A stretch of 33,153 nucleotides of DNA from Lama guanicoe. Taxonomy: Eukaryota. The translations under genes and the position numbers were made by a program. Positions 10,073 to 27,150 of this stretch are shown one piece after another. Under the pieces are notes generated by a model. It worked only from the letters and a program-made list of their open reading frames with translations. It was not told where the DNA came from and made no database searches. Numbering within the stretch: the stretch's first letter is position 1; each line of letters opens with the position of its first letter. The DNA lies in NCBI GenBank assembly GCA_013239625.1, contig PNXV01000010.1, positions 1 through 33,153 on the forward strand. Reading direction: 5' to 3'.

Positions 10073-10183
10073 TTCTGTACGGAGCTCAACCAGCCAATCC
10101 TGCCCAACATCCGCAAGTGGAAGGGGCCCCGAGGATGCTGGAAGTTCATTGTTTCAGAGACGCCCTCGACTCAGCTCCAGAAG
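10073..10183 (+). CDS. EEPD1: EEPD1 exon (human exon 4 equivalent), 111 nt, phase 0-0, open
   Basis: ctgtcttcacag|TTCTGTACG...CTCCAGAAG|gtatcc; translates FCTELNQPILPNIRKWKGPRGCWKFIVSETPSTQLQK. Confidence 0.95.
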
Positions 10184-10973: not shown

Positions 10974-11410
10974 TAAGCTCTCTTTTTAGCTACACCTTAA
11001 AGTGTGACCTATGTTCTATTTCTCTGGCTTTTGGAGTGTGTAAATGGTTGCTGTAGGTGGGAGCCAGCGTGCATTCACAGGAGGCTGGAAATACTGTCAA
11101 ACTGGAATGTATCTGGTCTTTACCACTCAAGCCCACAGCTGTCCCTTCTCAGTCCACATGAAAATAACAATAATGCCCCTTTCCTTTTTTTATAAGCTTT
11201 CTTTTTAGCTACACCTTAAAGTGTGACCTATGTTGTATTTCTCTGGGTTTTGGAGTGTAAATGGTTGCTGTAGGTGGGAGCCAGCGTGCATTCACAGGAG
11301 GCTGGAAATACTGTCAAACTGGAATGTGTCTGGTCTTTACCACTCAAGCCCACAGCTGTCCCTTCTCAGCCCACATGAAAATAACAATAATACCCCTTTC
11401 CTTTTTTTTA
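10974..11410. repeat. Direct tandem duplication, period 219 bp (10974-11192 / 11193-11410), about 96-97% identical
   Basis: Both copies begin taagct(c/t)tctttttagctacaccttaaagtgtgacc; 6 substitutions and 2 small indels by manual alignment. Confidence 0.97.
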
Positions 11411-11689
11411 ATAGCACTTCTCACATAGGTAGGTTCACAAGGCTCTTAACAGCGCATTTAACGCTTTTTATTCATTCATATCCAACAAATCATTAGAAAG
11501 GTGACTGCATGCCAGGCACTGTGTTACAAGCCAGATCTATATGGTGACAAAAACAGACCCAGCCACCCAGCCCAGCCTGTTTTCATTCTTTGCGTGTCCG
11601 GGGATCCGAACCTGAGCCTGACGGAGCCTGTGGTGGGGACAGGCCGGGTAACCATACTGCAGGTAGGGTGTCAGGGCTGTTGGAGAACA

Positions 11690-11914: not shown

Positions 11915-12070
11915 GGACAAATCTCCTGGTTTCTCAAAAGGTGCCAATATCTGGATTTTAATGTGAAACTTCCTGAATTTTAAATGTGGGTAGATCATTT
12001 TAAAATTATTTTAAACACTGTCTGGATGTAACAAACAGTGTGCAAGTCACAAATGTGCCACCTGGACCGC
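11915..12070. mobile_element. MER103-like hAT-Charlie DNA transposon fragment
   Basis: gccaatatctggattttaatgtgaaacttcctgaattttaaatgt...ttttaaacactgt resembles the MER103C internal sequence. Confidence 0.65.
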
Positions 12071-12822
12071 GGAGCAGCAGGAGAGAGTGTGGCAGCAGCT
12101 GCCGTTTCTCCAGTGTCTGAAGGGACGTCCAGGTGCCTCCTCCTTGGTCTCCAGCCTCACCCCCTGGTGGAGGGGCGGTCCACACATGAGAACACTGAGG
12201 TCTAGTGAGACAAAATGATTTGCCCAGAAGTCATCCAGCTGATGCGAGGTGGGGTTCAGGCCCCGACCCAGCTAGCGCTCTCTGACTCTAATGCCCCCTC
12301 TCCTCCCACCACGCCATGTTGAGGGCAGCTCTTCTGGATAAGGGCCCACCTGAGCTGGGGGCTTGGGAAAAGCTCCCAGAAGGATGTGAGGAACCAGTAG
12401 TGGAAGAAGCAGCAATACAAGGCAATGTAACAAACAATCTGCAAGTTGCAAATGTGCCACCTGGACCGTGGACCATCAGGAGAGAGTGTGGCAGCAGCTG
12501 CCGTTTCTCCAGTGTCTGAAGGGACGTCCAGGTGCCTCCTCCTTGGTCTCCAGCCTCACCCCCTGGTGGAGGGGCGGTCCACACATGAGAACACTGAGGT
12601 CTAGTGAGACAAAATGATTTGCCCAGAAGTCATCCAGCTGATGTGAGGTGGGGTTCAGGCCCCGACCCAGCTAGCGCTCTCTGACTCTAACGCCCCCTCT
12701 CCTCCCACCACCCCATGTTGAGGGCAGCTCTTCTGGGTAAGGGCCCACCTGAGCTGGGGGCTTGGGAAAGTCTCCCAGAAGGATGTGAGGAACCAGTAGT
12801 GGAAGAAGCAGCAATACAAGGC
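12026..12822. repeat. Direct tandem duplication, period 399 bp (12026-12423 / 12425-12822), about 97% identical
   Basis: Both copies run atgtaacaaaca...gcagcaatacaaggc; 13 substitutions by manual alignment; the ORF track shows duplicated peptides. Confidence 0.97.
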
Positions 12823-13704
12823 CAGGAAGGCCCAGTTGTGCTGGGACCACAGGCGAGCAGGCGTGCAAGGCAGTGATGAACAGGGAGGTGCCCACCCGGA
12901 GGGCCCCTGGGTTTTACAGCAGAGGGTGACCTTAGTGGTACTTAAGGTTACTCTGGCACCACCGCTTGGGAAACAGTAAATTGGGGGGAAGGGTGTATCA
13001 CCCTCTGATCCCAACAGGGCAAATCATGTTTCCTTCACTCTACACCTGAGAAAACAGGTTTAGAAAAACACAGCAGCTCCCCAGAGATCCCACCGCGAAG
13101 TGGCTTAGGCGGTTCTGAGACCCAGGTCTTCTCATTGTTAAACTAGTGCCCCCATGAGTGGGTGGGCAGGTCGATCATTTTAAAATAGAAAGGCGCACAG
13201 CAGGCAGAACGCTGTTCCTCCCTTCCCTCCTCTGCCACACACGTGCGGCCGGGACTAAGCTGAAGCTGGCGACTCGGCCAGAGCCCACTCAGGATATGCA
13301 GTCACTTCTCCTTTCGCAACGAGCATCGCTGCCCCCACCGGGTGACACTGCTGATACCCGACCCCTGCACAGAGCCCCCAGCAGCCGGACTGGCGGTAGG
13401 GGGAGACTTTCCTCTTTCCACAAGGCACCCGGTGGCAGCAGCAGGAAGCAGGCAGATTCAGAGTGGTCCCTCTGATGGCCAGAGACCTTGACCCTGCTCA
13501 CACCACCCTGTCTGTCTGCCCCACTCACTGGCCCTCGCAGCGCACTGCCCTGGGGCTTCAGACCCCCACGTGGGGCCCCATCCACCTGAAGAGGACCCTT
13601 GACCGGTTCCAAACCACTGAGACTGTTAATCTGTTCATCTAGCACTTGTTTATTGAATTTCTACTAGGTGCCAGATCCCAGCTGTTGTAAGCAAAACCAC
13701 CCTT

Positions 13705-13855
13705 TGGATTCTCGTGTTTGATCCTCAGAATTGCCGCTTACCAGCTATGGGGTTTTAAAGAAGTTACTTAATCTCTCTGAGCTGCTGTCTTCATCTGACA
13801 GATGGGAGTGTGAGCAGCTACTTCATGGGGTGTGATGATTAAAAAGATAACTCCA
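13705..13855 (+). mobile_element. MIR SINE fragment
   Basis: tgccgcttaccagctatgggg...aagttacttaatctctctgagctgctgtcttcatctgacagatggg...gtgatgattaaaaagataa. Confidence 0.75.
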
Positions 13856-14170
13856 TGCCTAATCTGGGTCCCCATTCCCGCCCCATCCCCTCAAAAAGAG
13901 AAGAGCCCAGGCACCCCTGGCAGTATGTGAAGCTCCCTGAAATTGCCAGTCTGGGAAATTGGGTGGGGGGACAAGGAGGAACACGCCGTGGCTTTGGGTG
14001 TGCTTTTGTCTCGGAAGCAGCCCCTGGGCATATAATCTCAGGACCCAGAGCAGAGCTTGCTGCTTCCCCATCGTCTCCTCCTGGGCTCACCTGCCTCTTC
14101 CCCCACTCAGGGCTGAGCCCTGCCACCAGACAGACCCCCTACACGCACTAACCCTCGTCTTCTCCCGCAG

Positions 14171-14305
14171 GGGCCCAGGTTTGCGGGATTCCTGTGGGAC
14201 ACGGTGGCCGGGGTGGAGCTGAGAGACGCCGCCTGGCAGGAGAGCTCGCCTGGCAATGAGCACGGGAAACCCGTGGGTCCCAGCCCGTACCTTGCAAGGT
14301 TCTAG
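14171..14305 (+). pseudogene. EEPD1: EEPD1 exon (human exon 5 equivalent), 135 nt, phase 0-0, last codon is TAG
   Basis: ttctcccgcag|GGGCCCAGG...GCAAGGTTCTAG|gtaccg; translates GPRFAGFLWDTVAGVELRDAAWQESSPGNEHGKPVGPSPYLARF*; the orthologous exon ends ...PYLGRFK. Confidence 0.93.
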
Positions 14306-14549
14306 GTACCGATCATGTCGCCGTGAAGAGCCACTCCGTCTGAAAAAGAAAAAAGGCCCTTTCTGAACTGTGAGCTGGAGAAGCTCATCTTTTGCCTTGG
14401 TTTTCTTCTCTCTGGGCTGGGGCTCAGCACACCACCCTGGGGCTCCCTTGGCTGGGGACCACATCCAAAGCAAGAATGAGAGGGATCTGGAGGATCTGTA
14501 GCTCTGGCCACGTTGACATGCGGGCGGGAAGGCGGTCAGGGGGCTGCTG

Positions 14550-14710
14550 TCCAAACCTGACCCACCTCGGAATCACCTGGAGAGATTCTTAAGATCAGGG
14601 GTTCCTGGACCCTGCCCCAGACACACAGAATGTCTGGGTTTCAAGCTTCAATGCTTCTTCAGTCTTCCCTGCACAGAGGTTAACGAGGCTGGGCATTTGG
14701 GACTCACTGA
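14550..14710. mobile_element. MER5-type DNA transposon remnant
   Basis: ccaaacctgacccacctcggaatcacctggagagattcttaag...gttcctggaccctgccccagac...agaatgtctggg. Confidence 0.55.
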
Positions 14711-15280
14711 ATTAGAGGGCAACTGGACTTCTCTGAGGACCCCCTCTCTTACCAGGGAGAGGGGGGACTCTGAAGGGGTCATTTGGGCTTGAAAGGGGCT
14801 CAGAAGGAGCTTCTGGGCAGTGGAGCCAGGGAAGCCCTATGACTGACACCCCCAGACAAGCCCTGTCTCACCAGAGTCCAGAGCAGCAAGCAGCCAGATC
14901 TGTGCTCTCTCTCTAATTTCCCCAGACATCCCTGGGAAATATTAATAAACAGCAAGCAGTCAGAAGCTGGGCAGCAGGAGCAAGAAGAAGCCAGCAGTCA
15001 AAACAGATCAGCAAGTCAGCAGTTGGCCTTATCCCTGTGAAGTCACAGGATCAGGCAGCGGTCCCTGGCCATAGCACTTAGCAAGCCACCTGCTGCCCAC
15101 CCCGCCCACCCACCACACGCTCCAGAGAGGTTCCGTAGCCTGCGAATTGCTGCAGACCCCAGCACAGTTTCTGGCAGCGCCGGGCTGGGGCAGCCAGTGC
15201 TGGGGCTGTGATGGCTTTGGTTGGGGTCCAGCCCAGGACTGTCCCCCTCAGGCCCATAGCTGTAGAGGCACTGGTGTTCC

Positions 15281-15311
15281 GTGTGCGCGTGCACACACAC
15301 ACACACGCACA
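15281..15311. repeat. Short (CA)n/(GC)n microsatellite
   Basis: gtgtgcgcgtgcacacacacacacacgcaca. Confidence 0.8.
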
Positions 15312-16462
15312 CCCCTGGGGTGTCTGTGGGTTGTGCTTATGGTGCTGATGTGGAATTCAGCCAGGTGTCACCGTTAATACCAGTCTTGCCTCCACACTGG
15401 ATCCCTTTTCTCTGTAAAGTGGCTGTAATGGTTTTGGCCAAGCAAGGCAACAGGCAGAACCAGCCAGTGACGCTAAGAGGCAGGCTGTTTTTAATGGCCA
15501 ATGAAAAATGCTGTCAGGTCACGAAATATTGGCCAAGGCGTCCAAGTGAAGCGATCGCCTCGACAGACGCGCAGCCTGCCGCACTTCATGGCATGTCGCG
15601 GGCCAGACAAGTGGTAGGAGCAGAGATGCGGCTCACCTCTCCACACTGGGTTTTCCTGCCCACAGCCTTGAGGTGGTTCCCCCACGGTCAGAGCCACAGC
15701 TGCAGAGAGAGCCCTCCACCCTCCAGGCTGGGCGGTGGTGCTGGCACATCTGTAAGACAGAACTGGCAGCCTCCACTTCCTGCACCCTGCTGCTTCTTGG
15801 CAGCGTTTACTCTTTGTTGCCATGTCAAACGGAAGGGCAGGTTGCTGAACTCTGAGCAGCTGAGCAACGCTGCAGTGCTCGAGGACCGCCCGCACTTCGC
15901 GCTTCCACACCTGTGCACCACGGCCACCCCTGGGGATGCGGAACAGGCATAGCCTGCGCTGCTAGGGTCCGGCCGGCTGTCGTTCTCGACATGTCTGAAA
16001 TCGGGTGACAGTGCGCATCAGGGCACAGTGGTCTCTGGTGGGAGAAGAACATGTAGGGGTGGGCAGTGGGGAAGGAGGAGGGTCCCAGCAGTGGGTCCTG
16101 GCAGGGGATGGAGGTCTGGCCCTTTGCCTAAGAGCCCCAGGTCTTTGGTAACAACCAGTCGCTAGACCCCCACTTCCCCCGTGTTAGTTGCTTAGAAGAG
16201 AAAAAGCAAAAAGCAAAAATTTGCCATTTCCAGATGTGCCCAATTTTCCAGGCCCAGGAGGAGCAGGTGCGATGTCGGGGTGCACTGATAGAACAAGATA
16301 GGTCTCTGTCCTGCAGGGGGTCGGAAAACCCTTCCGGTGCCCATCTCCCAGGGTGCGCCAGCCTCTGTGCTCAGCGCTGGGCGTGAAGCTGTGTGTGAGT
16401 CAGATAAAGCGGGAAGTAAGAGCATCGCGCCTGTCCTTGATGTGTCCTTTCCTCTTGCCCAG

Positions 16463-16601
16463 GTGGGAAGTAATGACTTGATCCTTGTGAACCTTCACCT
16501 GGCAGCCCTGACGTTCCCAGGGAGCGAGAACCCGAGCAGGAATCACAGCGACAACCACCGCTAGGCCAGCTTCGTGCAGACCTTGCAGGAAACCCTGAAA
16601 G
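16463..16601 (+). pseudogene. EEPD1: EEPD1 exon (human exon 6 equivalent), 139 nt, phase 0-1, internal TAG
   Basis: cctcttgcccag|GTGGGAAGT...CTGAAAG|gtagga; translates VGSNDLILVNLHLAALTFPGSENPSRNHSDNHR*ASFVQTLQETLK(G); TAG at 16562-16564 sits where the orthologue reads HRLASF. Confidence 0.93.
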
Positions 16602-17600
16602 GTAGGAGGCTGTCTTTCTCAGCTCCCACTTCTGCAGGGCAGGAGTTGTAGAAGGGGTTGCCTCTGTGTGCCCCTCCGTCCGATCCCTTCATCTGGCCAT
16701 CTGGCCAGAAGGCAGCAAAGCCCAGGAAACCACCACACTCCCTGCATCTCAGGGAGCCCAGCTGCCCTGGACATGCTGACAGCTTTTCTTCGTGAGTCTA
16801 GCACACGGGTTCCATGGTGTCAGCTTTGCGGCTCTTCAGCCTCTGTTTGATGGAACGGATTCAGTGATGACACCCTCCCCGGTGACAGCTCACTGTGGGT
16901 CAACTGCCCTGGGTGCGCTGCCTGCACATCTGCACGTGCTCTTCTTGTGAAGGAGGAAAAGTTGATGACAAGGGTGGGAAAGTCTGGTCGAGCAGTGAGT
17001 TGCATTTTTCTCTCCGGTGGGATGCAGACCTTACCGAAGGAGCCTTGAAGCTGACGGGAAAGCTGAATTTTAATCTCAGCTCTTTCTGTAGGACAGAAAA
17101 AGTTACCACCCCTTCAAGCTCCGTCTAGCGGGGGACGGACAGTGGTGACCTGATAGGGTGCTCAGGGGGCTTGGTGACCTTCTGAGGAAGTGCCCAGCAC
17201 ATAGTAGGCACTCAGCTAACATGAATTGACTCAAAAAAAAAAGCCACTGGGTTTACGAAAACATAGAAAAGAGCTGAACTTTAGAAGAAAGGTGGGCTGT
17301 CTGTTTTCTGGGTTCTGCCGCCAATAACACAGAAGGTTTTCTGTGCACGGTTTACCAGAAAGAAAACTTGACATGGCCGTAAAGATAGGGACGTGTGTGA
17401 CTGCGCTTGGTTTTTTCAAAGCTTCTCTAGATGAGGGTTCACAGCTGGAGGCTGGAATTCTCTTCCATAAACTAGAGTCTTAACCAGTGTTCTCTAGCTT
17501 GCTCAGCAATTTTTTCCTTGTTAAGTTGGCCCCTCACAATGGGCTTATGAAGATTTGGCTATAAAAATAATTCAGTCAGACTACAAAGTTACATTTTGAA

Positions 17601-18041
17601 AAGACTTCTTATTGTGGTAAAATACGTATAACATGAAACTTACCATCTTAACCATTTTTAAGCCTTCAGGTCAGTTATATTAAGCATATTTACATTGTTT
17701 TACAACCATCACCACCATCCATCTCTAGAATTTTTTCGTCTCCCCAAACTGAAACTGCACCCATTAAACATAAAGTCCCCATACCTCCTTCTCTGGGTCC
17801 CTGAGCATCTCCATTCAACTTGCTGTTTCTATGAATTTGACCACTCTGGGTATCTCCTGTGAGCGGAATCTTACAAAATTTGTCCTTTTGTTTCTGGCTT
17901 ATTTCACTTAATGTTACATCTTCATGGTTCATACTATGTGTCAGAATTTCCTTTCTTTTTAAGACCAAATACTATTCTGTTTATTGGTCAATGGACACTA
18001 GGGCTGTTTCCATCTTAGGGCTGCTGTAAACATTGATATGC
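17601..18041 (-). mobile_element. 5'-truncated L1 (L1MA/MB-like) with a perfect 15-bp flanking direct repeat (target-site duplication)
   Basis: attgtggtaaaatacgtataacatgaaacttaccatcttaaccatttttaag...caaccatcaccaccatccatctctagaa...; AAGTTACATTTTGAA at both 17586-17600 and 18042-18056. Confidence 0.9.
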
Positions 18042-19489
18042 AAGTTACATTTTGAACCAGGATGTGCTTAAATTATGCATTCTCCTTAAATTATGAGTCT
18101 TTGGGCTAAGATAGTATCAGAAAGATGTTTAAGCTGAGATATTTCATCCAAGGAGCAACTATGTGGGAATTGTTCACCTGCAGTCTCCAGCCTAAAAAGG
18201 CTGACTTGATAGCTTTTCAGATCCATGCATGTTTCTCTTATTTTCAGTCTCAAGGTTTTCCTTTTCGTGGAAGCAGAAAGGAAAGATGCCAGCCTCTAGC
18301 TTCTCTGATAACCTTAGTCTCTCTCTGTTTTGGTTTTTTTTTTCCCCTCCCTGATATCCAGGGACTGGTAAGGTTTTTGTTAGCAAACCTAGGCAGGTTA
18401 TGTTCCAAACTGCCAGGGGACTATCGATCGACCCACAGCCTGGCTTGGCCTTGACACACCCATGTATGGACAGTGACTCATGTTTCTGTGTCCCCCTGTG
18501 TGTAACTAAGGTCCAGTTCATTGTTAACTGGTGACGCGGCAGACCCAGGATTCAGGAAGTGCCGCAGCCTGCCCGGGGGGCAACACGGGTGCATCGATGA
18601 GCAGAGGCGTTTCAGCTAAAACAAAGACTAAGCCTATATTCCACGGGCTTCTTTCTATCAGAGCAAACAGAGCCGACTTGATTAGTAAACTCTGGGCTTT
18701 TCTGCCTTTGTCTGGAATGTGCACCCAGGTTGACGTCAGCTGGGGTGTGCCCATCCTCTGATGGAATTCTCTGCTTTCACACCCGCCAGGGGGCCTTCTC
18801 TGTGAACTCAGCAAAAGGGACACAGGGTGCAGTCATCCTTGACATCTGGGGGGGGACCTTCCTTCCCCCCGTGGGGACCGGCTTCTGCTGTTTTCACTGG
18901 CATTTTATAAATCCTGAGACTTGGAGCAAATCAGCCCCGAGCATTCTCCCCTCACTCCCAGCAACCAAGATGATTAAGGCACCCACCCCGGTGGACAGCC
19001 TTCTAGGAGAATTCCGGTCTCCGCACATCTGGGGACTCTCAGGCAAGGACTGTCGCCATGTTATCACCCAACTGATTTAACCGAAAGAAAAAGCCTAGAT
19101 GTGCCTGTTCAAAAAGAGCTGTTATTTTCATCCCTAAAGTTACACAGAGCTCGGCTCATTGACCCTCGACACCTGCATCTCCCCTGGCTTCAGAAGTGTC
19201 TCTTACGGCTCACACTTCTTCAGATCTGCACCCCAGTGAAAACCTCCCTGCCACATGGGAACCTCCTGCCTCGGACTTTCTTAACTTCAGTTTTCCTTGA
19301 TAGTCGATAAATGCAGCACCTTTTCCTTCTTTCCTTTCAAAATTACACTGCACCCTAATTTTGAGGTTTTCCCCTCACTTTTTTTCCCCCTCGCCTTGTT
19401 CACTGTTTCTTCCACACGTGTCTATCAAGCATCTGCCGGGCAGCAGGCACTGTTCCAGGCACACGGGGCTTTTCCATCCTTGCTCTTTC

Positions 19490-19650
19490 CTAAGAGCCCT
19501 GGATTTGAGTGCTGGCTCGGTGACCCTGGGCAAGCCTTTCCAACTCTCGGAGCCTCAGCCTCGTACCTGCACAGAGGGTCCAGTGCACAGTGAGGGCTCG
19601 GTGAATGGTCATTAACACTGGCCACGGATGAGATGTTATTAATGTTATTC
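19490..19650 (+). mobile_element. MIR SINE fragment
   Basis: gtgaccctgggcaagcctttccaactctcggagcctcagcctcgtacctgcac. Confidence 0.65.
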
Positions 19651-20235
19651 TCAAGTTAGTTTTGCTATTTGGAAGGAGGCACCAATTTCTCAAGACCACG
19701 TGATTGGGCTCACCCTGCTCTTGTTAGGATCTAGCATGAGGGGTTAAATCTCTGTGGGCCACACAAGTGGCTGCAGGGAAGGCTTCCCTCCACTTTCCTT
19801 CTGTTCCGCCCGCCCCTCGGTGGAGGGCGTCACGTGCAGTGAGCAAGAGCCCTCTGCTGGTGGCGTGTGTCCTTCCACTTTAGATTTCTTTCCCTCCAGC
19901 CATTGTTACTGAAGCATGTTCATGTCCAGGAAAAAGATTTGCTGAGTCTCAGATGCATTTGGCCTTCGTTTATGAACTGCTTTCCTTAAAGCTTCCCTTG
20001 CAAGATGAGACAGAAATGCCGCTCCCTGTGATAACGTGGCTCCCCTGAAGGGACCTTGGAGACAGGCCATGACGGTCAGGCCATCCATACGAATCCCAGG
20101 GAGGCTCGCTCGGGCCCACTGTCCTCTCTGCTCACTTTGGAAAGTACTTCATCACTATCCCACTCACTCTAGTAAATCAAACTATGAGAGAAATATTGAA
20201 GATACTTTAAAGGGAAAAGCTTTCCACTTTGGCCC

Positions 20236-20433
20236 TGTGTTAGTGTGCTCAGGCTGCAGTCACAAAATACCACGGTCCAGGTGGCTTAAACAAAAGGAGG
20301 TTACTTTCTCGCAGTTCTGGAGGCCGGAAAGTCCATGGTCAAGGTGTGGGCAGATTTGGTTTCTTCTGAGGCCTCTCTCCTTGCCTTGTGGATGGCTGTC
20401 TTCTCCCTGTGTTCCCAAGATCTTCCCTCTGTG
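20236..20433 (-). mobile_element. MLT1 (MaLR) LTR fragment
   Basis: tgtgttagtgtgctcaggctgcagtcacaaaataccac...gtggcttaaacaa...cagttctggaggccggaaagtccatggtcaaggtgtgggcag...tctgaggcctctctccttg. Confidence 0.85.
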
Positions 20434-20765
20434 CTCGATAAATGTTTGTTGAGCTTTTGTTAAATATCTGAGCAGGACCCTTAGGCCTTTTTGTGCTGTG
20501 AGATTTGGAGCCCATGGGTTGGAGCAGGGGTGATCTCTCCATCACACTGACCCCCATTTCCAGATGTGTCACTAATCTGTTCTTAAGTTTGGGAGGGGGT
20601 TGGCACAAGGAGTTTGGAAACACTGGGAGAATAAGAACCATGCTGTAGTCCTAACCTTAAGAGTCAAATCAGACAGCCACGATCCCACTTAAATGGGCTG
20701 TGGTCAGTGTTGGGTTCATTTCTCACCTCCTCTTAAACTCCTGATTTTCTTTCTTTCACTTCCAG

Positions 20766-20960
20766 GAGAAAAAGACGTGATCGTTTTAGGGGACTTCGGC
20801 CAGGGGCCAGACAGCACTGACTATGATATTCTGAGGAAAGAAGAATTCTGCCCCCTGATCCCCGCACGCAACTTCACCAACATCAGCACCAAGAATCCTC
20901 AAGGTTCAAAGACTCTGGACAACATCTGGATCAGTAAAACCTTGAAGAAGGTTTTCACAG
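20766..20960 (+). CDS. EEPD1: EEPD1 exon (human exon 7 equivalent), 195 nt, phase 1-1, open
   Basis: ttcacttccag|GAGAAAAAGAC...TTCACAG|gtaaac; EKDVIVLGDFGQGPDSTDYDILRKEEFCPLIPARNFTNISTKNPQGSKTLDNIWISKTLKKVFT, containing the EEP-family GDF and LDxIW motifs. Confidence 0.95.
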
Positions 20961-21264
20961 GTAAACACAAGTCACTCGTCCTTCCTCCTGCTCCGAAATG
21001 GAGTAGAATGCACCTGTCTGAGCTGACAGTTCCGGATCACTTGGTTTGAGCAAGAGCCAGGAGTTGCCTTCCCAGGCATTTACTGGGTTATCATTTAGGT
21101 GACTGTGTCATTATCATTCAAATAGAGTCACATTTAAGAGTGAAGGGGTGTGAAAAATAATTAAAAGGCATTCACTGATGTACCACAGGGGCAACGCCAG
21201 TGTATCCTGGGCAGCATCCCCAGATTCCAAGATGAGCTGATAATGTAGCCTAATTTTAAGGACA

Positions 21265-21420
21265 CTTAGTCATTCAGCAAACACCTCTCCAGACCTATCA
21301 TGTTCAGCCGCTGTGTTGTGGCCTGAGGTTTACTGACTCACCGTCCATGCCCTGAGGAGCAGTGGTTAGGGGTGAGCTGACAGGATGGGAGAAGTGCTTT
21401 AAACAGGACTCCTCCAGGAC
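21265..21420 (-). mobile_element. L2 3'-end fragment
   Basis: cacttagtcattcagcaaacacc...cctatcatgttcagccgctgtg...catgccctgaggagc. Confidence 0.5.
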
Positions 21421-22174
21421 CAGGGTGTGGTGGGTGATCTCAGTGCTGAAAAGCAGTCCCCCCCCATAGCAGTCACTTGCTGAGCAGACTTTGGATCAGA
21501 AAACAGAAATATAGTCGCAATGGTAGGGTCTTTTGATGAAAGACAAGAACAGTTGTTCTCAGTCCTGCCTGGAAGCTTCACTAATGCCAATGGATGCAGA
21601 GTATACTTCAGCGAGACATTTAAGAATGTTTTAAGTACTAATGCTGGGGTCCCACTGTGAGACCCCGACATGCAGCTGAGACTTAGATCCTCAAGACTAG
21701 AATTTCCCATCCTGGGCACCGGTTTCCTGTTGGACTGTGTCATGGGAGGATCCAGAGGATGAAGAAAGTGGGTCTCAAGAGGAGTGACAGTCATCAAACT
21801 AGGTGAGATGCAGTTTGTAAGAATGGCCTGCTGGCAAGACAGAGACTGGGGCTGCAAGGAGGCGCTAGCGGAAGGCAGTGCTCTCACCACGGGAGCTGGG
21901 GAGCCTGAGAACACTGGGCTGTAGGGAAGTTAGAAATCATTTCGTCTGCCCCCTTGCTGTTAAGCTTTTTAGGGGTAGTTTCAGTGCTTACCGTGGTAAA
22001 CCCTCACTTGCTGAGAAAATCAAATGGGCTGAGACAGCGCATTTGCACAGACAAGCCAGGCTGAGTCTCATCAGGGAGCCCAGGTGTGCAGCCACTTGCC
22101 AGCCTGCGACACCCCGCCCTCACATCCCCCATCCCCTATATCCTGACCTCTGGTTTCTTTTCCCTCTGCCTCAG

Positions 22175-22374
22175 GTCACTGGGCTGTCGTGAGAGAGGGC
22201 CTCACGAACCCTTGGATTCCAGATGACTGGTCCTGGGGCGGAGTGGCTTCCGAACACTGCCCCGTGCTGGCGGAGTTTTACACGGAGAAGGACTGGAACA
22301 GGAAGGAAGGCGCCCGGAACAGCAGCGGGGTCACCCTGGAGCGAAGTGAAGCCAACATTAAGCACGAGCAGTGA
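22175..22374 (+). CDS. EEPD1: EEPD1 terminal exon, coding part to the ancestral TGA stop
   Basis: tccctctgcctcag|GTCACTGG...GAGCAGTGA; HWAVVREGLTNPWIPDDWSWGGVASEHCPVLAEFYTEKDWNRKEGARNSSGVTLERSEANIKHEQ*, containing the SDH-type motif SEHCPV. Confidence 0.95.
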
Positions 22375-22875
22375 TGACAATGAACCGGGTTTCCACCCTT
22401 GGACCCCGGAGGCCAGGAGCTCCCCCTCCCCGGTGAAGATGCAGAGCGCCAGGAACTGTCTTTTCATCTTCATTCTGACCACGTCCGCGCCCGGGCCTGG
22501 ACCCGCTTGCCGTCTTGGCGGATGTGTTTGGACCTCTGGCAGGGGCGGGAGCACGCTGGGCCCTTGAAGTGCTGGATGGTCAGATCAGAAGCCCAGCAGA
22601 GAACGGAAATGTGTGCCATCTGCGGTTGCCGCCAATCTCAGCCCACCGGCTGGCCACGCCCGCTGCCTGGACCGCAGCCCGGAGAGGAGCAGCTGCGGCG
22701 GCCGAGCAGCAGGGAGTGGGAGATGCCGGGCCGCCGGGACCTGCCCGAGGGCTGCCGGGAGCTCTCCTCTCTGCCCACCAGTCTGCGATGTTCTGGCTGC
22801 AGATCACATAAAGCTTTTAACTTGAGCAGTCTTCTCAAACATTTTGAGTGGTGGCTTTTAGTTTTGTTTTGAAAA

Positions 22876-22881
22876 AATAAA
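22876..22881 (+). promoter_or_regulatory. Candidate polyadenylation signal AATAAA in the EEPD1 3' UTR (first copy)
   Basis: First AATAAA about 500 nt after the stop; U-rich upstream and GT-rich gtgtgtgttttgtg about 55 nt downstream. Confidence 0.45.
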
Positions 22882-23489
22882 CAGAGATGAACCAGCCTGG
22901 CTGCAGTGAGAGCCCGGGGACAGTTCCCCTGCCGTGTGTGTTTTGTGCTCCCTTTGGATGCCCCTGGTGGGCTGTGGCCTGAGGGGTCCCGAACACAGTG
23001 CAACCCCCCAACCTCAGTCCCCAGGAGCCTGCTTCCTTTTCATCCCCGCCTGAGACCTTGCACAGGTGTCTGTCACAGCCACGTAGACCCCCTGAGACCT
23101 CTGTGTAATCTCAAATCATCTCCTGCCTCCCAGAGCGCGCATCTTCTGACTTTTGGTCAGACCGTCTGTTATGTGTGTTATTACATTTGTGCCTCCAGAT
23201 CCAGTGCAGGTTCCCTTGTGCTGGGGGACAATTCCATCAGAACGATGTCCTTTACTCTTTCCCTCCCTCCGTCCCTCCCCACTCCACCCCCTTTCCGTGT
23301 CCCCGCCCTCCCAGCCTCTAGCCCAGAGCCTCCCTCTGCTGCTTCTGAGGAATAGCTGTTGATTCTGGACCCACAGGGAGCCTGGGAACACTGGGGGAGG
23401 GAGGGTCCTTCTTTGTCGGTGGGTGTTGGGGGCCGGGAGCACGTGTTAACTGCCACCAGGCACCCTTCCCTTCCTTGCGTTGGGTTCTC

Positions 23490-23640
23490 ACTGAGGTCCC
23501 TGTGAGACCAAGATGATGATGCCCATTTCACAGCCGAGGAAACTGAGGCTGAGGGAGCTTCACATGAAGGTCACTCAACTAGTAAGTAAATAGACAAGAT
23601 CCACGCTCAGTCCAAAGCGCATGCCTATGGGTCAACCCTG
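23490..23640 (-). mobile_element. MIR SINE fragment (duplicated at about 25710-25860)
   Basis: gatgcccatttcacagccgaggaaactgaggctgaggg...aaggtcactcaactagtaagt. Confidence 0.8.
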
Positions 23641-23746
23641 TGCTGCCAGAAGTAGTGTGTCAGAGAGAATCAACACAGAGAGTGAACATGTGAGCCGTGA
23701 CCCGGCTCCTTGCAGTTTACCACGGACTCTGAGGGCTTAGCCCTCC

Positions 23747-23981
23747 TCCAGCACTGAACACGGCATGGACCACCAGCATCACGCTGTGGGAACCCAGGGA
23801 CGTGATGGCCTGTTTTCCACCAAAGGCCACCTTTGGGGCCACCTGGCTCCAAGGAGCACCACTATCCAGCACTGAACACGGCATGGACCACCAGCATCAC
23901 GCTGTGGGAACCCAGGGACGTGATGGCCTGTTTTCCACCAAAGGCCACCTTTGGGGCCACCTGGCTCCAAGGAGCACCACT
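23747..23981. repeat. Nested perfect tandem duplication: 117-bp unit x2 separated by one A (23864)
   Basis: tccagcactgaacacggcatgg...aaggagcaccact at 23747-23863 and 23865-23981; single unit at 25967-26083 in copy B. Confidence 0.97.
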
Positions 23982-24544
23982 GGTCATTGGCATAAGAAGG
24001 AAGTCCTTTCTGGGGGCTCCAGGTGTACCTGGGTGTCAGCCACGCCCACTCTGAGGGAGTGTCTCTCCAGTGGGAGGGTGAGTGGCACCTGGAGGCACTG
24101 AACCTGTGAGGGCTGAGCCTTGACCCAAAGCAGCTGAGTTAGAGTGAAAAGTCATGGCAGGTTGGAAAGGGTGCTTCCCTGCTGAGCTGACTCATCTAAA
24201 GCTAAAACCTCCACCTGCATTCAGCAGCCAGCTGCCTCGAGTCCTTGCAGCCAGATTTCTGCCCCAAAACTGGGGGAAGAAAAGGCTCCTCAACTGTGAA
24301 GAGGTAAAAGAAATTCAGTTGAATGACCTCTGGCTCATTTGGTTTGAGCCAGAGGCTGGGGAGCTGCATTACAGTGGCCACACCTCACAGGCAGGGTGGG
24401 CTCGGCCTCTTTGCTTCTGACATCCAGGGCCGGCTCGGGGAGCCTGGCCACAAGGGGCCGCTGGTCTTGCTCTGGGCCCAGCCCTCTTGAGTTTTCTTTT
24501 TGGATCTTTTGTTTGTGTTTTGTTTTGTTTTGTTGTCATTGTCT

Positions 24545-24927
24545 TTAATTAATAGACTTTATTTTTAAGAGTAGTTTTAGGTTTATGGAAAACTTGAGCA
24601 GAAAGTAGCCCCCCAAGCCCTGTACAGTTTCCCCTATTACTAATGTCTTGCATTAATGTGATACATGTGTTAACCGTTGATGAATTAATATCGGTATATT
24701 ATTAACGAAGCCTGTAGTTTACACGAGGGCTCGCTCTTTGTACTCCATGTGGGTTCTGACAGAAGCATGTTGACATCCGTCCACCTTACAGAGCATGCAG
24801 AATAGTTTCTCTGATCTAAAAATCCCCTGTGTTCCACCTGTTCATCTCTCCCCCTCCCCCGGCAACCAGTGATCTTTCTACGTCTCCCTAATTTTGCCTT
24901 TTCCAGAATGTCATGTAGTTGGAAGCA
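24545..24927 (-). mobile_element. L1MC-like 3'-end fragment truncated by the duplication junction
   Basis: aatagactttatttttaagagtagttttaggtttatggaaaacttgagcagaaagta...ttttgccttttccagaatgtcatgtagttggaagca, then an abrupt switch to 3' UTR sequence. Confidence 0.85.
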
Positions 24928-25095
24928 AGCAGGGAGTGGGAGATGCCGGGCCGCCGGGACCTGCCCGAGGGCTGCCGGGAGCTCTCCTCTCTGCCCACCA
25001 GTCTGCGATGTTCTGGCTGCAGATCACATAAAGCTTTTAACTTGAGCAGTCTTCTCAAACATTTTGAGTGGTGGCTTTTAGTTTTGTTTTGAAAA

Positions 25096-25101
25096 AATAA
25101 A
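25096..25101 (+). promoter_or_regulatory. Duplicated candidate polyadenylation signal AATAAA (second copy)
   Basis: Same context as 22876-22881, offset 2220 nt, inside the large tandem duplication. Confidence 0.4.
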
Positions 25102-26646
25102 CAGAGATGAACCAGCCTGGCTGCAGTGAGAGCCCGGGGACAGTTCCCCTGCCGTGTGTGTTTTGTGCTCCCTTTGGATGCCCCTGGTGGGCTGTGGCCT
25201 GAGGGGTCCCGAACACAGTGCAACCCCCCAACCTCAGTCCCCAGGAGCCTGCTTCCTTTTCATCCCCGCCTGAGACCTTGCACAGGTGTCTGTCACAGCC
25301 ACGTAGACCCCCTGAGACCTCTGTGTAATCTCACATCATCTCCTGCCTCCCAGAGCGCGCATCTTCTGACTTTTGGTCAGACCGTCTGTTATGTGTGTTA
25401 TTACATTTGTGCCTCCAGATCCAGTGCAGGTTCCCTTGTGCTGGGGGACAATTCCATCAGAACGATGTCCTTTACTCTTTCCCTCCCTCCGTCCCTCCCC
25501 ACTCCACCCCCTTTCCGTGTCCCCGCCCTCCCAGCCTCTAGCCCAGAGCCTCCCTCTGCTGCTTCTGAGGAATAGCTGTTGATTCTGGACCCACAGGGAG
25601 CCTGGGAACACTGGGGGAGGGAGGGTCCTTCTTTGTCGGTGGGTGTTGGGGGCCGGGAGCACGTGTTAACTGCCACCAGGCACCCTTCCCTTCCTTGCGT
25701 TGGGTTCTCACTGAGGTCCCTGTGAGACCAAGATGATGATGCCCATTTCACAGCCGAGGAAACTGAGGCTGAGGGAGCTTCACATGAAGGTCACTCAACT
25801 AGTAAGTAAATAGACAAGATCCACGCTCAGTCCAAAGCGCATGCCTATGGGTCAACCCTGTGCTGCCAGAAGTAGTGTGTCAGAGAGAATCAACACAGAG
25901 AGTGAACATGTGAGCCGTGACCCGGCTCCTTGCAGTTTACCACGGACTCTGAGGGCTTAGCCCTCCTCCAGCACTGAACACGGCATGGACCACCAGCATC
26001 ACGCTGTGGGAACCCAGGGACGTGATGGCCTGTTTTCCACCAAAGGCCACCTTTGGGGCCACCTGGCTCCAAGGAGCACCACTGGTCATTGGCATAAGAA
26101 GGAAGTCCTTTCTGGGGGCTCCAGGTGTACCTGGGTGTCAGCCACGCCCACTCTGAGGGAGTGTCTCTCCAGTGGGAGGGTGAGTGGCACCTGGAGGCAC
26201 TGAACCTGTGAGGGCTGAGCCTTGACCCAAAGCAGCTGAGTTAGAGTGAAAAGTCATGGCAGGTTGGAAAGGGTGCTTCCCTGCTGAGCTGACTCATCTA
26301 AAGCTAAAACCTCCACCTGCATTCAGCAGCCAGCTGCCTCGAGTCCTTGCAGCCAGATTTCTGCCCCAAAACTGGGGGAAGAAAAGGCTCCTCAACTGTG
26401 AAGAGGTAAAAGAAATTCAGTTGAATGACCTCTGGCTCATTTGGTTTGAGCCAGAGGCTGGGGAGCTGCATTACAGTGGCCACACCTCACAGGCAGGGTG
26501 GGCTCGGCCTCTTTGCTTCTGACATCCAGGGCCGGCTCGGGGAGCCTGGCCACAAGGGGCCGCTGGTCTTGCTCTGGGCCCAGCCCTCTTGAGTTTTCTT
26601 TTTGGATCTTTTGTTTGTGTTTTGTTTTGTTTTGTTGTCATTGTCT

Positions 26647-27150
26647 TTAATTAATAGACTTTATTTTTAAGAGTAGTTTTAGGTTTATGGAAAACTTGAG
26701 CAGAAAGTAGCCCCCCAAGCCCTGTACAGTTTCCCCTATTACTAATGTCTTGCATTAATGTGATACATGTGTTAACCGTTGATGAATTAATATCGGTATA
26801 TTATTAACGAAGCCTGTAGTTTACACGAGGGCTCGCTCTTTGTACTCCATGTGGGTTCTGACAGAAGCATGTTGACATCCGTCCACCTTACAGAGCATGC
26901 AGAATAGTTTCTCTGATCTAAAAATCCCCTGTGTTCCACCTGTTCATCTCTCCCCCTCCCCCGGCAACCAGTGATCTTTCTACGTCTCCCTAATTTTGCC
27001 TTTTCCAGAATGTCATGTAGTTGGAAGCATACATACGTAGCCTTTTCAGACGCTTTTTCACGTAACAACCTCCCTTTAAGTTGCTTTTGTGTCTTTCCAG
27101 GACCTGAGAGCTCACTTCTTGTTATTGCTGAATAATGTTCCATTGTATGG
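26647..27150 (-). mobile_element. L1MC-like 3'-end fragment (uninterrupted copy)
   Basis: Same sequence as 24545-24927 but continues ...gttggaagcatacatacgtagccttttcagac...gctgaataatgttccattgtatgga. Confidence 0.85.

Follow-up and report, generated by a model that had tools for sequence, protein, structure and literature searches.

Has EEPD1 been lost in the South American camelids? This question is raised by a stretch of 33,153 nucleotides of DNA (contig PNXV01000010.1 of the Lama guanicoe assembly GCA_013239625.1), called the window in the following, in which the reading frame of EEPD1 is interrupted by two TAG codons. The available parts of earlier reports describe EEPD1 as conserved across metazoans, including its dimer interface (PMC12988330), and link it to fork protection and cholesterol efflux (PMC4684289, PMC5321112). 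According to our analysis, the window probably covers the five final exons of a South American-type camelid EEPD1 copy that has turned into an unprocessed pseudogene. It is very likely that this copy is unable to make canonical EEPD1. That it is also the only EEPD1 of the lineage, which would leave South American camelids without the protein, has about an even chance in our view. The fuller history, in which South American camelids are natural EEPD1 knockouts whose only copy was disabled on the stem lineage after the camel split and has been drifting since, is put forward tentatively, as we would place it just short of even.

The borders of the exons were derived from tblastn searches of the window with 11 EEPD1 orthologues and from reading of the borders themselves. 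Matches were confined to five places in the window (Table 1), and 8 of the 11 orthologues matched all five. Each of the other three lacked one place, namely exon B in Sus, the last exon in Pongo and exon C in Pteropus; the Sus query (P0004) is the 524-residue form without exon B and the Pongo query (P0034) an isoform whose C-terminus differs. An AG stands before each of the five exons, a GT donor follows each of the four internal exons and a TGA closes the last one. The four introns of 3987, 2157, 4164 and 1214 nt accordingly have AG/GT borders. Joined, the exons give a single frame of 780 nt that covers residues 311-569 of the 569-residue human EEPD1 without gaps, and its only internal stops are the two TAGs. 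A preliminary description of this DNA had already reported both TAGs in a gene of five exons with canonical splice sites and an otherwise open frame, had named the gene EEPD1 and had placed the stops at about residues K392 and L426 of 569. All of this was borne out: the stops lie where they had been placed, the borders and the frame are as described, and the alignment to the human reference gives the same two positions. A processed (retrotransposed) pseudogene was ruled out by the presence of the introns.

The identity of the gene follows from the tblastn matches, from its similarity to Camelus and from its position in the tree. The window shares 241 of 259 residues (93%) with Camelus EEPD1, and because 259 codons agree to this degree, the frame is not a chance pattern of open reading frames. 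Both Camelus models (EPY75839.1 and KAB1276286.1; 260 amino acids) consist of Met plus exactly the five window exons and have camelid-specific residues in common with the window. Unlike the window they are intact, with Lys392 and Trp426, and the proposal of the preliminary description that the inactivation is lineage-specific therefore agrees with a sister lineage that is intact at both sites. The Camelus sequence matched the EEPD1 chains 9yi2, 9ysf and 9yxy of the PDB (E 4e-157 to 3e-143) and the Pfam family PF03372 (27.4 bits, cut-off 24.5). Exon D of the window scored 16.7 bits against the same family, which is under the cut-off of 24.5 as expected for a fragment. A protein search with exon D gave 195 matches among 443 candidates, and every named one of the 120 listed was EEPD1. 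The table of this search displays representatives of 90% clusters only and not the cluster members, which include three camelid records: the two Camelus models of 260 amino acids and one alpaca RefSeq model of 125 amino acids (XP_072821423.1, 'EEPD1-like'). In a maximum-likelihood tree of 20 rows and 259 columns the window was grouped with the alpaca model (support 97/93), these two with Camelus (100/99) and the camelids within the cetartiodactyls (99/96). Judged by named NCBI proteins and by this tree, rather than by the sequencing runs, the window is camelid DNA of the alpaca (South American) type.

The available part of a structure paper from 2026 (PMC12988330) assigns the EEP motifs to Asn267, Glu301, His404, Asp-x-Gly450, Asp490 and Glu530-His531, and describes a 'handshake' dimer through Trp522 in the beta11-beta12 loop as the unit needed for DNA binding. 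Motifs i and ii fall outside the window. In the window frame we found H404, D448, G450, D490, N515, W517, P519, W522, W524, E530 and H531 all present. The window thus encodes the same domain as human EEPD1 (PDB 9YI2, 9YSF, 9YXY; PMC12988330) and keeps its listed motif and dimer residues, but 46 of 259 residues differ from the human protein, including N521D directly beside the handshake Trp522, and the frame is cut at 392 and 426. As for the rest of the gene, the Camelus models are partial and start at exon A, and in Camelus, too, the gene looks divided or only partly annotated. None of the camelid records found contains the 5' half of EEPD1.

Both stops are established at the level of the assembly sequence. 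Exon B translates into 44 residues followed by the stop as its final codon, and positions 16463-16600 translate into 33 residues, the stop and 12 further residues. The uninterrupted frame of a functional EEPD1 is thus absent. At the position of stop 1, each of the 19 aligned orthologues with exon B has Lys, and so do Camelus and the alpaca model. At the position of stop 2, Trp is found in all nine other cetartiodactyl rows (Camelus twice, Cervus, Bos, Moschus, Sus, Eschrichtius, Delphinapterus and Physeter), and the residue in most other mammals is Leu. Since the cetartiodactyl residue is Trp, which has one codon, stop 2 arose as TGG>TAG, and the earlier derivation from a leucine codon (TTG>TAG) has to be corrected. 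The Trp426 codon changed to TAG before the window and alpaca sequences split, and the Lys392 codon changed to TAG in the window sequence. Within the frame, 93 of 2313 single-base changes create a stop (4.0%); two stops are in line with drift. A metagenome scan with a 32-base pattern across stop 1 gave no matches.

Table 1. Coordinates of the EEPD1 exons and of the two stop codons in the window.
Feature	Positions	Strand	Length (nt)	Human residues	Remarks
Stop 1	14303..14305	+		Lys392	TAG; AAG>TAG, A>T at 14303; last codon of exon B
Stop 2	16562..16564	+		426	TAG; TGG>TAG, G>A transition at 16563; inside exon C
EEPD1 exon A	10073..10183	+	111	311-347	Open; AG/GT borders; translation FCTELNQ...QLQK
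EEPD1 exon B	14171..14305	+	135	348-392	Cassette exon, skipped in the 524-residue isoforms of other species
EEPD1 exon C	16463..16601	+	139	393-439	Contains His404 (EEP motif iii)
EEPD1 exon D	20766..20960	+	195	439-504	Motifs iv (D448-F-G450) and v (D490); 3' of both stops
EEPD1 exon E, last coding	22175..22374	+		504-569	TGA at 22372-22374; Trp522 dimer loop and motif vi (E530-H531)

The alpaca model provides outside evidence on the two stops. Its exon A and its first 33 exon-C codons are identical to the window, its C-terminus (...SDNHR) ends right before the window's stop 2 codon, and no other row of the tree is closer to the window. Compared with Camelus, the window and the alpaca model have the derived residues F335, F410 and N423 in common. 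Its differences from the window at other sites show that the alpaca model comes from a separate sequence, and because it ends at stop 2, this stop is independently supported and older than the separation of the two. On the evidence of these two sequences, stop 2 is old and common to the alpaca model, and the result for the window accounts for the alpaca having only a 125-residue 'EEPD1-like' model. Stop 2 was thus found in both of the two lineage sequences (window and alpaca model) and stop 1 in one of the two, with Camelus intact. The preliminary description had counted two independent stops; the second one has gained support from outside, and the first one has not, as the alpaca model carries Lys. 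For stop 1, we see about equal chances that it has become fixed in the species and that it is an allele, a change in one copy or an error of the assembly.

All disagreements of the window with the alpaca model fall into exon B. There, 6 of 45 codons differ, each by one base change, compared with no difference over the 70 codons of exon A and the common part of exon C (Fisher p 0.0029). Four of these changes are unique to the window (G350R, A359V, G377E and K392stop) and two to the alpaca model (D357V and V362M). At the other three window-unique sites the alpaca model has Gly, Ala and Gly, which matches Camelus. No second copy of exon B was found within the window.

Besides the stops, the rate of protein change sets the window lineage apart. 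In relative-rate tests of the window against the Camelus protein, with nine outgroups in turn and binomial p values, we counted 12-14 unique replacements in the window compared with 0-2 in Camelus (p 0.00012-0.013). With Bos as the outgroup and the stops removed, the counts were 12 and 2 (p 0.013). Correspondingly, the tree path from the camelid node to the window measures 0.034 + 0.025 (0.059) and the path to Camelus 0.005 + 0 to 0.004. Measured on the protein only, change in the window lineage was about seven times faster than in Camelus. In 18 other mammals 123 columns show no variation; among these the window differs at six (G377E, K392stop, K465E, H473R, N521D and R569Q), Delphinapterus at two, and Camelus, Bos, Cervus, Ursus and Eschrichtius at none. 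Exon A has one difference from Camelus; lineage-specific changes lie in exon D (K465E, H473R, T474N and S497T) and in exon E (N521D, G553S and R569Q). In total, 14 changes over about 590 non-synonymous sites amount to about 0.024 per site. The camel and llama lineages separated roughly 16-25 million years ago. Set against this split and an ordinary mammalian neutral rate, the value of about 0.024 per site points to weak constraint over much of the branch. Constraint on the window lineage has thus probably been relaxed for a long time, and the loss would not be recent. The preliminary description had called the loss recent, which is doubtful in view of the excess of unique replacements and of a stop 2 common to the alpaca model; the limited decay on which it was based was confirmed.

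Nonsense-mediated decay is expected to act on an mRNA when a stop lies more than 50-55 nt before the last exon junction. Stop 1 lies 334 nt and stop 2 232 nt upstream of this junction. The mRNA would therefore be an expected target, as both stops are more than 200 nt ahead of the last junction. A target of this kind had been predicted earlier for the first stop from its downstream exon junctions, and both stops proved to lie beyond the 55-nt limit. The earlier statement that the GDF, LDNIW and SEHCPV motifs are removed was equally sound, all three lying 3' of the stops. Any translation would end at codon 392, or at codon 426 when exon B is skipped or carries Lys. A protein ending at residue 391 or 425 would be without EEP motifs iv-vi and without the beta11-beta12 loop with Trp522.

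Skipping of exon B keeps the frame and removes stop 1, and it corresponds to the 524-residue isoforms of pig and many other species. The A>T change of stop 1 gives the exon-B donor, weak as it already was (TAG/GTACCG, the slash marking the border), a T at position -3, and this may favour skipping of the exon. The only skips compatible with the frame are those of A, of B, of A and B together and of D, and stop 2 remains in all four cases. An alternative GT donor 7 nt upstream of the end of exon B shifts the frame and offers no rescue.

Sequencing runs were consulted for the presence of the locus. In 14 DNA runs (5 organism labels, 5 studies) we found 0.87-0.89 of 991 sampled words of positions 14100-23500, and the locus is thus real and widespread in the group. 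These word shares give no base-level evidence on exon B or the TAGs, since the cluster of six changes would cost only about 2% of the words. RNA runs contained 0.10-0.15 of the sampled words, which is no evidence of expression. A metagenome scan with the Camelus protein gave one locus at 65% identity from a distant vertebrate, which was not used further.

In its features the window resembles the lineage-specific unitary pseudogenes of mammals, which likewise combine nonsense mutations in a conserved multi-exon gene with retained introns, an intact sister lineage and faster protein change. It differs from them in that it is known from the 3' exons of one locus and from two lineage sequences. 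Several observations weigh against a single copy that has been dead and drifting for long. Stop 1 and three window-unique replacements are missing from the alpaca model, and the clustering of the differences in exon B seems to fit no simple history. Alleles or sister species diverge too little to account for six changes within 135 nt. A pair of paralogues drifting at an even pace would be expected to show differences in the neighbouring exons as well, and errors confined to one assembly fail to account for unique changes on both sides. Moreover, no frameshift has occurred in 780 nt, the splice sites are all intact, and the catalytic and dimer residues 3' of the stops are all kept except N521D. 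The decay therefore appears to be less than is usual for a very old pseudogene. In the 123 invariant columns, the window's six differences are exceeded by Rousettus (8), Onychomys (9) and Heterocephalus (12), so that the number is high for its clade and not for mammals.

Stop 1 and the surrounding cluster of exon-B changes may not be fixed in the species. They could represent a segregating allele, the haplotype of an individual or a subspecies, or a local assembly error, and stop 2 would then be the sole lineage-wide lesion. We consider this a substantial possibility, somewhat below an even chance, and it is compatible with the gene being a pseudogene. The alpaca model with its Lys392 and its Camelus-like residues at the other window-unique sites speaks for it, as does the clustering itself, and a near-perfect tandem duplication of 2.2 kb nearby could be an assembly artefact. 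Nevertheless, errors in the window alone are insufficient, since the alpaca model has D357V and V362M of its own. The window-unique changes also have an ordinary spectrum (three G>A/C>T and one A>T, inferred from the codons), and a gene that was already dead would have been free to gain a second stop at the share of single-base changes given above. A segmental duplication could also have left two EEPD1-derived loci, of which the window would be one decayed copy and the alpaca model perhaps another, possibly with an intact EEPD1 elsewhere. Such an origin would fit the number of differing exon-B codons, which is far above what is expected of alleles or sister species, and the presence of unique changes on both sides (four in the window, two in the alpaca model). 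It would also fit that the first 10 residues of the alpaca model are not encoded in the window, including the 10 kb 5' of exon A, that the model is named '-like', and that the locus contains local duplications (2.2 kb at 99.8-100% and tandem pairs of 399 bp and 217 bp). We nevertheless regard the duplicate as unlikely, because exons A and C without any difference in 70 codons are unlike two evenly diverging copies and stop 2 is in both sequences, so that neither is the intact copy. The name may just reflect a partial model of 125 residues, as '-like' can mark partial models. When longer proteins were searched with the alpaca model, the 85 matches (the best, a cattle-like Logan protein, at 87%) included no South American camelid representative, and no intact protein of these animals was found among the cluster representatives, a weak argument given that the members of the 90% clusters are hidden.

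That the gene still works is very improbable. This would require A-to-I editing of UAG to UGG, readthrough of the stop codons, or a role for a truncated N-terminal HhH protein, which might be myristoylated. Editing at stop 2 would restore exactly the ancestral Trp, and the frame, the splice sites and the motif residues 3' of the stops are intact. Exon B is moreover a natural cassette whose skipping removes stop 1, and mouse Eepd1 was described, in the available part of the report, to activate protein kinase A (PKA) via N-terminal myristoylation and without the HhH DNA-binding region (PMC11733280). However, no duplex suited to editing was apparent around stop 2: the surrounding 301 nt fold at -101.6 kcal/mol compared with a shuffle mean of -103.3 (z +0.32; 65 of 100 shuffles as good), and the 4 kb of positions 13500-17500 hold no long inverted repeats and only three short ones, which are imperfect and 20 nt in length. 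At stop 1 the same editing would give Trp in place of an invariant Lys. The sevenfold acceleration of the protein, including N521D and H473R, also speaks against constraint downstream of the stops, and a truncated product would be without the dimer loop that DNA binding requires according to the available part of PMC12988330.

Should the window indeed represent the pseudogene of a lineage with no other EEPD1, a large mammal lineage would be a natural knockout that could show which roles of EEPD1 are dispensable or compensated in vivo. These camelids, adapted to cold and altitude, would in that case protect replication forks and mobilise fat in the absence of EEPD1. In the available parts of the mouse studies, deletion of Eepd1 in fat was reported to impair PKA activation, lipolysis and thermogenesis (PMC11733280), and global Eepd1 knockout mice reached adulthood (PMC11659772). 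Given that such knockout mice reach adulthood, the loss of the gene in nature is plausible and would be no great surprise. Gene losses confined to single lineages are common as well. The case belongs to the well-known class of lineage-specific pseudogenes and is possibly a natural knockout. In full-text searches no publication turned up that reports a loss of EEPD1 in camelids; supplementary gene-loss tables were outside these searches and may list EEPD1.

Several further features of the window were recorded. No neighbouring genes were found in it. A protein search with an antisense open reading frame over exon B gave three matches at 58-63% identity, none of them camelid. A nearly exact tandem duplication of about 2.1-2.2 kb (22705-24927 and 24924-27029, with blocks of 1160 nt at 99.8% and 1063 nt at 100%) begins 330 nt past the stop codon of EEPD1, in what is presumably the 3' untranslated region, and is either a very recent event or an assembly artefact. 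Its first copy only contains a 118-nt unit that occurs twice at 100% identity (23747-23981). The A-B intron contains two tandem pairs, at 12026-12822 (399 nt twice, 96.7%) and at 10974-11411 (about 217-222 nt twice, 96%), with no EEPD1 exon-like sequence inside. The intron between exons B and C carries a short (CA)n microsatellite at 15286-15310.

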